DNA of 64,000 nucleotides from Candidatus Riflebacteria bacterium HGW-Riflebacteria-1 (GTDB taxonomy: Bacteria; Muiribacteriota; Ozemobacteria; Ozemobacterales; Ozemobacteraceae): positions 282,735 to 346,734 of the forward strand of contig PGYB01000001.1 of NCBI GenBank assembly GCA_002839445.1, written 5' to 3'. Shown here piece after piece: positions 14,632 through 15,909 of this stretch (within the stretch, counting starts at the first letter, position 1; each line of letters starts with the position of its first letter). A program made the translations under genes and the position numbers. The notes below the pieces were generated by a model. The model was not told the DNA's origin. It saw only the letters and a list, made by a program, of their open reading frames with translations, and searched no databases.

Positions 14632-15909
14632 TTACCAGCTGCCCCCACCGAGCCCAGGCTGCCTTGATGCTTCTGGCAACGGTTCCTCGTCGGAACGGTC
14701 ATTACCGAGGGGGCCGAAGAGGGCGTCAGTAGCGCTGTCAATGCCGCTATTAACAACTCCAGTAGCCTGCGTTTTCGACGGAGCCAACTGATTACCGACT
14801 CCTCTTGAGAGTAAGCTCTTAACTGCCTGCGTCGCAAAATCACCGTCGGCTATTTCATCAAAGGCGCCACCGCCCATCTCCTTGACGATTCCACCAGTAA
14901 TTTTTTTCGTGCCGTATTTAATTGCCTCACTGGCAGCAGCCTTGGCAGTATTTTTACCGATGACGACAGCATATTCTCTGTCACTGGTAATACCTTTCTC
15001 TCCTGCCTCAATTAAAGAATTTCCGGCGCCAATGAGAACGACAGAAGCAATACCGACCGCCTTGCCGGCTATATCACAGACGCCGGAGATAGAGGAAATT
15101 ATCCCAGCAGCGGGAGCAGCAACAACAGTAGCAGCGCAGGCGGCAGCTATGACCTTCAGAGTCAGAGAAACCACGCCTAAAATAGCTCCGGTCTTGCTCA
15201 TGACCTCACCGGTTGAAACAAGCTTTTGTCCGGCGCCGATGAGTGCATCCTGGTAGATACGAAGAGCATTGGCTCCCGCATCCATAGTGCCATGAACCTG
15301 GGATGGATCAGTCTTGGCGGCCGCTTCAAAATCGCCTTTCTTAAGCAGATCCATGGTTTTTTGAGCATCGGCCTTAATTTGCTTGATTTGCTCGTTGGCT
15401 TCGTCAATCTCGTCGCCATATTTCTTGAAATCTTCTTCTTCTTTTTGCTTCTTTTCGGCCTCGAGTTCAAGTTTTCTGGCCTCAGCTTCCTTTGCCCTTT
15501 GCTTGTTCTCGTGCTCTCGCAGTCTCTCTTGAAGGTCAAAGGCACCGCCGGTAAGCTTGTCGGCACCCCATGCCAGAACACCAGCTACAGGAGCAACCGC
15601 ATTATCTCTGATCCATCTGGCAGCATCCTCAGCGGCACGGCGCGCCGCCTTGGCACCCGCCTCAGCTTCCTTCCAGGCGACTCTGGCCGCATCAATCGTG
15701 TCAATCACTATGCTCGCAGTCGTTTCGAGCTCACACTCCTTGATTGCCATAATATCGTCGTAGGTCTTCTGGTAGTCGGCAACAGCCTTTTCGATCTGAG
15801 CTTTCTGATTTGGGGCCTCAGCCCTGGCCATTGCCAGGGGGGCAAAAGGTTGCAACAGCAATGCAAATACAATCAGAACAGAAAAAAACTTGCGCATATG
15901 CCTGCTCAT
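14632..15909 (-). CDS. secreted coiled-coil protein with Gly/Ala-rich hydrophobic helical hairpin
   Basis: Signal peptide (FSVLIVFALLLQPFAPLAMA), charged KE-rich coiled-coil, then ILGVVSLTLKVIAAACAATVVAAPAAGIISSISGVCDIAGKAVGIASVVLIGAG. First gene of the minus-strand operon. Confidence 0.5.
   Translation of the reverse strand: MSRHMRKFFSVLIVFALLLQPFAPLAMARAEAPNQKAQIEKAVADYQKTYDDIMAIKECELETTASIVIDTIDAARVAWKEAEAGAKAARRAAEDAARWIRDNAVAPVAGVLAWGADKLTGGAFDLQERLREHENKQRAKEAEARKLELEAEKKQKEEEDFKKYGDEIDEANEQIKQIKADAQKTMDLLKKGDFEAAAKTDPSQVHGTMDAGANALRIYQDALIGAGQKLVSTGEVMSKTGAILGVVSLTLKVIAAACAATVVAAPAAGIISSISGVCDIAGKAVGIASVVLIGAGNSLIEAGEKGITSDREYAVVIGKNTAKAAASEAIKYGTKKITGGIVKEMGGGAFDEIADGDFATQAVKSLLSRGVGNQLAPSKTQATGVVNSGIDSATDALFGPLGNDRSDEEPLPEASRQPGLGGGSW

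Follow-up and report, generated by a model that had tools for sequence, protein, structure and literature searches.

Adhesins, DNA receptors and a small number of secreted partner proteins have been described at the tips of type IV filaments, and PilY1 of type IVa pili, ComZ of Thermus and GspK of the type II secretion system (T2SS) are encoded together with low-abundance pilin-like proteins that prime assembly and are located at the fibre tip. The present analysis concerns a gene, here called X, on a stretch of 64,000 nucleotides from Candidatus Riflebacteria bacterium HGW-Riflebacteria-1 (contig PGYB01000001.1, positions 282,735 to 346,734; hereafter the window). X encodes an exported helical protein and stands at the head of a cassette whose further members are designated K (724 aa), S (about 154 aa), I (173 aa) and J (230 aa, pilin-like). 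The product of X was 100% identical to the hypothetical protein CVV41_01180 of the same bacterium and, judged from its sequence, is the founding member of an undescribed, unannotated family restricted to Riflebacteria. Because the synteny of these genes is conserved, X very probably works together with the type IV pilin-like cassette.

The closest functional precedent for the role proposed here is provided by CofJ and TcpF, which belong to the CFA/III pilus of enterotoxigenic Escherichia coli (ETEC) and the toxin-coregulated pilus (TCP) of Vibrio cholerae, respectively. Both get to the periplasm independently and not as pilins, and they depend on the minor pilin of the fibre tip, to which they bind with a short terminal segment. 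CofJ is a secreted protein encoded in the operon of the ETEC type IVb pilus; it docks on the tip minor pilin via a flexible terminal segment and has a fold like that of pore-forming toxins (PMC6048534). X resembles CofJ and TcpF in being a non-pilin protein with its own export signal that is encoded in an operon with pilin genes, and it thus belongs to the class of pilus-operon secreted partners. No relationship in sequence or fold was found, however; X is predicted to be entirely helical and has no significant match to a PDB chain, and its cassette differs in that it includes a pilin-like protein of 724 aa, whereas type IVb genes could not be recognised in it. The role of PilY1, ComZ and GspK fits K by its position and N-terminus, whereas the models for these proteins were matched by neither X nor K, X being helical and PilY1 a beta-propeller.

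Two further groups resemble X in layout. The major translocators IpaB, SipB and YopB of type III secretion systems (T3SS) have the same order of elements, in which a hydrophobic hairpin of two helices comes after an elongated coiled coil. They enter a target membrane from the tip of an extracellular fibre, a use that is likewise proposed for X. X differs from them in its cleavable Sec signal, its shorter, marginally hydrophobic arms and the lack of significant homology, and no T3SS or chaperone genes were found among the neighbours of X examined, which were pilin-like or housekeeping genes. The alpha-pore-forming toxins (ClyA, Hbl, Nhe, AhlB, YaxAB) resemble X in their length of 350–450 aa and in having an elongated, all-helical bundle, predicted in the case of X, one end of which carries a hydrophobic hairpin or tongue; Hbl and Nhe are Sec-secreted, as X would be. 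X showed no Pfam or PDB sequence match to them, and none of these toxin families was among the family hits listed for the 36 members scanned. The best fold match to the group was AhlB with a Foldseek E-value of 9.1, and the partners of X are pilin-like genes and not toxin components, except for tandem paralogs in one locus (L005).

Architecture and family of X

The ATG start of X is preceded by GGAGG at a distance of 7 nt. In the signal peptide (MSRHMRKFFSVLIVFALLLQPFAPLAMA, followed by RAEA), the n-region is basic, the core is hydrophobic with a Kyte-Doolittle mean above 2 and the end is A-x-A-like; inspection of the N-terminus revealed neither a lipobox Cys nor a G|FxxxE prepilin motif. A class I signal peptide was present in 35 of the 36 aligned family members, on which all family-wide figures below are based; the lone exception was an N-terminally truncated gene call. 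X was also considered as a type IV pilin or pseudopilin itself, which was rejected on the ordinary Sec signal (PLAMA, then RAEA) and the lack of an N_methyl match.

The mature protein begins with a conserved amphipathic helix (consensus QKAQIxxAVxxYQKTYDxIMA), which is a candidate docking element. In the charged region that follows, residues 81–200 are Ala-rich and contain 43% K/R/D/E, and residues 63–149 form a variable long helical hairpin, a lineage-specific insertion absent from most relatives. The conserved helices of this region carry the patterns YxxxIExANxxI, in which N172 is invariant, and ALxIYQxALxxAGxxL. Behind the hydrophobic hairpin are found the motifs AGNSL (G296 and L299 invariant) and AITSD (D310), followed by the tail, in which residues 346–425 contain 17% Gly. 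The tail ends in LPxAxxxPGL-GGGSW (PGLGGGSW) in the window, and most relatives have a C-terminal [PA]GL motif, often with a subsequent Gly run and a terminal aromatic residue.

By mean pairwise identity, the best conserved segments were the N-terminal helix (0.40), the hairpin turn (0.40), the post-hairpin motif (0.43) and the C-terminus (0.40). The complete layout (signal peptide, helices, hydrophobic hairpin with Pro/Ala turn, AGNSL, variable tail and PGL near the C-terminus) recurred in each of the 36 relatives aligned, including those with an identity of only about 21%, and is therefore not a product of chance. An earlier note, made from the sequence of the window, had described a signal peptide, charged helices and a hydrophobic stretch followed by a Gly-rich tail; all of these parts were present, and the hydrophobic sequence quoted there was located exactly, at residues 243–296.

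The hairpin is rich in Ala, Gly, Val and Ile over 55 residues and consists of a first arm, a Pro/Ala turn (AAPAAG in the window, FPPAAP in most relatives) and a second arm. Its Kyte-Doolittle mean over 19 residues reaches 2.2 in the window, where it is the sole such region besides the signal peptide, and the corresponding maximum was 1.6–2.7 in every family member. The hairpin is conserved more as a property than as a sequence. A crude, position-independent sum over the arms on the biological scale, with values reportedly those of Hessa et al. 2005, gave a median of +1.8 kcal/mol and a range of −1.6 to +7.6, compared to about +10 for the rest of the protein; the sum was below zero in 7 members and below +1 in 15. 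This median marks the arms as marginally hydrophobic. The first arm measures 16–20 residues, mostly 16–17.

The charges around the hairpin are distributed in a consistent manner. Not a single Lys or Arg was found among the 269 turn residues of the family, the flanks of the hairpin are net acidic, and K252, D279 and K283 are the only charges within the hydrophobic run of X in the window. This distribution is the reverse of the one expected under the positive-inside rule if the hairpin resided in the inner membrane with both termini outside (Nout-Cout), and it fits a segment that would pass through Sec and insert later. Cys was enriched six-fold in the arms (2.7% vs 0.44% elsewhere), occurring in the first arm of 24 members, the second arm of 16 and both arms of 13; a disulfide staple between the arms is possible.

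The family is small. When the representatives of 1.84 billion clusters were searched exhaustively with HMMER, only 32 relatives (clusters at 50% identity) were found, mostly of 330–445 aa; a word-indexed search returned 13, to which a repeat with the family profile added almost nothing. The relatives with a source name were all from Riflebacteria, Ozemobacteraceae or Rifleibacterium, with the exception of one contig binned as Erysipelotrichia that has the same cassette and is probably misbinned. X had no significant match in Pfam, NCBIfam or PHROGs, and phmmer against all PDB chains gave nothing below an E-value of 0.5. Among PDB entries, the profile of the 36 members matched only a designed coiled coil at E<0.01, with spike HR1 following at 0.1–0.5. 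Pfam scans of the individual members produced scattered, sub-threshold coiled-coil matches, including T3SSipB (E 0.023), NolX (E 0.019 to 5.2e-4) and the RTX N-terminal domain (E 0.012), each in one or two members. The T3SSipB match (PF16535) occurred in one member with 15.5 bits against a cutoff of 31 and was confined to the coiled coil; like that of NolX, it maps upstream of the hairpin.

Structure prediction with AlphaFold2 yielded a poor model from 13 sequences (pLDDT 46.6) and a better one from 39 sequences after removal of the signal peptide (pLDDT 63 overall, about 70 over residues 29–333 and below 50 over residues 334–425). The latter is all-helical, with predicted helices at 33–54, 63–120, 126–190, 202–260, 262–305 and 310–338 and a disordered tail. 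The hydrophobic stretch would form the distal part of the long helix-turn-helix 202–260/262–305, which is broken at residue 261, and the charged region consists of long helices in both models. A Foldseek search with the model found nothing below an E-value of 1.

Linkage of X to a pilin-like cassette

To evaluate synteny, the five proteins of the window cassette were compared with 29 loci by tblastn. The order X-K-S-I-J was found in about 20 loci, wherever sufficient sequence was available, and K follows X immediately in the window. The outer flanks were unrelated, comprising flagellar genes in the window, lgt and hprK in L001, kinase and TPR genes in L003, and radical-SAM and dnaX genes in L005. 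The earlier note had placed X as the first gene of a pseudopilin operon next to a GspK-like gene and had suggested a search for homologs beside the latter. The position of X was borne out, as the last two genes, I and J, carry the prepilin N-methylation motif, and the recurring X-K adjacency, with synteny in about 20 loci between unrelated flanks, makes the link of X to the operon much stronger than could be seen at that time.

Several variants of the cassette were observed. The genes are still together in L029 in the permuted order K-S-I-J-X. L005, the most distant locus examined, contains tandem X paralogs of 443 and 424 aa (9001–10332 and 10508–11782) ahead of the cassette. In L001, a multi-pass membrane protein of 222 aa with weak ICMT/PEMT (methyltransferase) similarity (E 0.02–0.03) lies between X and K (9156–9824); the same was found in L002, and the X-K gap is of similar size in L010, L011 and L026. 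X diverges far more than its partner genes: in L009, it is 37% identical to the window protein, compared to 66, 74 and 69% for K, I and J. Fast evolution and tandem duplication are typical of exposed, target-facing proteins.

A diverged paralog, X', closes a second type of cassette in L022 (573–10071) and L024 (2155–6658), and X is for this reason linked to pilin-like genes in two independent architectures. The second cassette begins with an extracytoplasmic function (ECF) sigma factor, an anti-sigma factor, another pilin-like protein of 724 aa and three pilin-like genes, and continues with an OmpA-like protein, an SH3-M23 peptidase, a secreted protein of 337 aa and X'. The N-terminal 200 aa of its 724-aa protein are weakly related to K (hhalign E 3.5e-4, probability 37%). 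The sigma/anti-sigma pair suggests control by envelope signals.

Directly after the X paralog of L024, a secreted 520-aa protein with two phospholipase D (PLD)-like domains is encoded (6827–8389), which could be of the phospholipase, cardiolipin-synthase or nuclease type. An N-terminal targeting helix shared between X and this protein appeared similar by eye and was rejected by hhalign (probability 0.6%).

The features of the window are collected in Table 1. A total of 66 relatives of K could be gathered, with lengths of 595–761 aa (mostly about 700–760 aa); those with a source name were all from Riflebacteria/Ozemobacteraceae and all annotated as hypothetical. Neither K nor its relatives had a Pfam match of note, the only hit of K in Pfam/NCBIfam at E≤1 being an irrelevant one to SdrD_B (E 0.07), and the family profile had no match in the PDB. 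The description of K as GspK-like had to be given up as a statement of homology: no such homology was detectable, and only the N-terminal RRGFILFLV, which lacks Glu5, resembles GspK/PilX. In the absence of a Pfam or PDB-profile match, the term applies to the position of K only. K represents an orphan family and is a candidate large tip subunit. A public gene call for K (Joint Genome Institute, JGI; 696 aa) appears to take Val29 as its start and to miss the first 28 residues (region 14473–14557, minus strand); this start would remove the conserved pilin-like RRGF N-terminus. The upstream GTG start at 14557 is supported by its conservation across loci.

S is fast evolving (28–73% identity across loci) while its position is conserved, and no family match was found for it in Pfam or NCBIfam. 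I is 55–92% identical across loci, with an N_methyl score of 13.8 bits that lies below the cutoff and a ComGE-like match at E 0.015; the F..E motif is invariant in its family. J exceeds the N_methyl cutoff (25.3 vs 21.2 bits) and matches PDB pilin chains at its N-terminus (E 5.8e-4), and its family profile matches the N-termini of PilA-N, MshA and PilA in the PDB. A match of J to TIGR01711 gspJ (E 9.7e-6) is below cutoff and covers the N-terminal 67 residues only.

Table 1. Features of the X cassette in the window (positions of the window; all on the minus strand)
Feature	Position	Strand	Basis
Gene X, exported helical protein, 425 aa, ATG start	14632..15909	-	ORF (open reading frame) listing
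X: predicted Sec-type (class I) signal peptide, residues 1–28, predicted cleavage after AMA	15826..15909	-	read from sequence
X: conserved amphipathic N-terminal helix of mature protein (NQKAQIEKAVADYQKTYDDIMAI..EL), residues 33–62	15724..15813	-	alignments and predicted helix
X: charged helical region, residues 63–240	15190..15723	-	composition and predicted helices
X: small-residue hydrophobic helical hairpin (predicted), residues 241–296, closing at invariant G296 of AGNSL	15022..15189	-	hydropathy, model
X: variable Gly/Ser-rich tail, probably disordered, residues 334–425	14635..14910	-	pLDDT, composition
GC-rich RNA hairpin with U-rich tract, codons 12–21 of the K gene, just downstream of X	14497..14522	-	terminator scan
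K, 724-aa protein, pilin-like N-terminal segment RRGFILFLV without Glu5	12383..14557	-	ORF listing
S, small bitopic membrane protein, about 154 aa from MLNN start	11929..12393	-	ORF; start by comparison with L001
I, type IV pilin-like protein (MRSGFSFVEIVV...), 173 aa	11391..11912	-	N_methyl motif GFSFVE
J, type IV pilin-like protein (…QRGFTLVEAV…), 230 aa	10702..11394	-	N_methyl above cutoff

The RNA hairpin downstream of X is perfect, with 11 GC pairs and a loop of 4, and looks like an intrinsic terminator or attenuator. Its 3' arm coincides with the G-R-R-G codons of K, and its 5' arm encodes non-conserved residues. Over 8 loci (the window, L001, L003, L006, L008, L009, L013 and L028), which were chosen for their shared register and represent only about four independent lineages, 96.6% of cells were paired and 5 of the 11 pairs had changed on both sides. 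Slid alignments paired at 35–56%, and none of 500 shuffles reached the observed covariation score. In other loci, the hairpin was weak or in another register. The presence of such a terminator-like element after X suggests that X is made in excess of the tip-type subunits.

Possible roles of X

Our tentative first choice is that X acts as a Sec-exported, non-pilin partner or cargo of a putative type IV filament tip complex, with its hairpin entering a membrane or a hydrophobic surface. The Sec signal, the repeated linkage to pilin-like genes, the marginal hydrophobicity and short arms of the hairpin and its violation of the positive-inside rule argue for this role, as do the fast evolution, the duplication, the probable excess expression and the CofB-CofJ precedent. 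The signal peptide would take X across the inner membrane and then be cleaved. All steps after export are inferred: in the periplasm, the mature protein would fold up as an elongated bundle of helices with the hairpin shielded, and would dock on the priming or tip complex of K, I and J via the N-terminal helix, the C-terminal PGL...W motif or both, these being its best conserved peripheral elements. Polymerisation of the fibre may then carry or push X out of the cell, where the uncharged, Pro/Ala-tipped hairpin would insert into a target membrane or hydrophobic surface and thereby anchor the fibre or perforate the target.

Several observations speak against this proposal. No homology of X to any membrane-active family was found by sequence or fold, and the structural model is of moderate quality. 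The arms of the most distant members contain several charged residues and resemble amphipathic helices, with Hessa sums of +4.5 to +7.6; they could do no more than pack within a soluble bundle. Among the window ORFs scanned and in the gene tables of four related loci, no gene was found for a motor, platform, secretin or prepilin peptidase of a pilus or T2SS. The physical association of X with the pilin-like proteins is proposed from gene linkage and not from direct evidence.

X could instead be a resident inner-membrane protein, a reading that we consider rather unlikely. Once the signal peptide has been cleaved, SecYEG would release the two arms sideways as a tight helical hairpin whose termini both face the periplasm, and the periplasmic coiled coils would scaffold or regulate assembly of the neighbouring pilin-like proteins, making X an assembly factor and not a tip protein or cargo. 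The Kyte-Doolittle maxima lie within the range of transmembrane helices in all members, negative or low Hessa sums occur in a part of them, and helical hairpins of membrane proteins are classically built from a hydrophobic stretch of about 45–55 residues with prolines at its centre. Pilins sit in the inner membrane before assembly, so that co-localisation with X would be natural, and the synteny fits equally well. The turn, which would have to be cytoplasmic, contains no Lys or Arg, however, while Lys is found in the would-be periplasmic flanks, contradicting the positive-inside rule. Moreover, a first arm of mostly 16–17 residues is short for a bilayer span, the Hessa sums are unfavourable at the median and more so in the distant members, and a machinery scaffold would not usually evolve fast, be duplicated in tandem or carry a long disordered tail.

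A third reading, also doubtful but conceivable to a similar degree, takes X for a soluble structural protein of the periplasm or the cell exterior that has no membrane activity, such as a coiled-coil adhesin, a spacer, or a cap or chaperone for the pilin-like proteins; the hairpin would then serve as a buried core or as an interface for oligomerisation or for a partner, e.g., against the hydrophobic N-terminal helices of pilins. The amphipathic arms of the distant members, with acidic and basic residues spaced 3-4-7, are consistent with such a core, and Y164/I168/A171/N172/I175, G227/L230 and G296/L299 would lie level with one another in the predicted three-helix arrangement, as judged from the model and the invariant columns. 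Yet the close and mid-distance members have a nearly chargeless run of about 50 Gly/Ala/Ser/Thr/Val/Ile residues with an uncharged Pro turn, which exceeds the needs of a bundle core; the six-fold Cys enrichment in the arms also speaks against this reading, and the Foldseek searches gave no specific match to a soluble fold. It is very improbable that X stands alone as a homolog of some membrane-active or phage family already known (ClyA/Hbl/Nhe-type alpha-pore-forming toxins, the pore domain of colicins, the SipB/IpaB/YopB translocators of the T3SS or phage tape-measure proteins) and lies beside pilin genes by accident; this reading has been largely refuted. The layout of a coiled coil followed by a hydrophobic hairpin and the T3SSipB, NolX and RTX matches in one or two members are all that points to it; these matches are below family thresholds and lie on generic coiled coil, off the hairpin. 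A PDB search with the X profile gave no meaningful match, the Sec signal peptide of X cannot be reconciled with secretion as a T3SS substrate or with a tape-measure protein, and the synteny with pilin-like genes recurs in two cassette types and about 20 loci. The likenesses drawn in the earlier note fared accordingly. The one to alpha-pore-forming toxins and T3SS translocators stands for the layout and falls as homology, which no profile or fold search supports. The tape-measure likeness found no support: X lacks a PHROG match, it has a Sec signal, and no phage genes were found among the neighbours examined in four contexts. The colicin likeness, as homology, was unsupported by family and fold searches, and X was not assigned to the colicin-type pore-forming domains (Pfam Colicin, ten-helix globular bundles that bury a hydrophobic hairpin).

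If X is indeed a partner of a filament tip, an extended form of the proposal, which we regard as speculative and improbable, would see the tip with its translocon-like hairpin protein as a device, carried on a pilus, for lodging in or puncturing another cell's membrane or a hydrophobic substrate. Such a device would be functionally convergent with the needle-tip translocon of the T3SS while being built of pilin-type parts and parts exported by Sec, and X would be produced in excess through an attenuator inside the leader-coding region of K.

Genomic surroundings and significance

In the window, flgF, flgG, flgA and flgH (2157–5532, plus strand) are separated by about 10.6 kb from flgI and the rod-binding flgJ (16150–18550, plus strand). 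Genes for a carbamoyltransferase and a GDSL-lipase/TPR protein lie in this gap together with the X cassette on the minus strand, which looks like an insertion into the flagellar cluster because the rod and ring genes are split by it. As genes for the flagellar L- and P-rings are present, the host can be taken to be diderm, with an outer membrane. Elsewhere in the window, an ORF of 1878 aa was observed (46672–52308, plus strand).

On the basis of these comparisons, X and K are two new protein families and the five-gene cassette is a portable, lineage-specific unit. Cassettes of minor pilins with a non-pilin partner are already known, and it is the architecture of X that appears new in this setting. 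In literature searches, no description of the X family was found in work on the pili of Riflebacteria/Ozemobacter or on pilus-tip pore-formers, and no earlier description of an all-helical type IV filament partner with a conserved membrane-competent hairpin was found.

Independent of the function of X, the analysis flags a covarying RNA hairpin that overlaps the sequence coding for a pilin-like leader, and corrects a public gene call for K that apparently lacks this leader. If X rides on a fibre and enters membranes, it would represent a new effector mode for type IV filaments, namely contact-dependent anchoring or poration, and it would hint at how uncultured Riflebacteria interact with other cells or surfaces.

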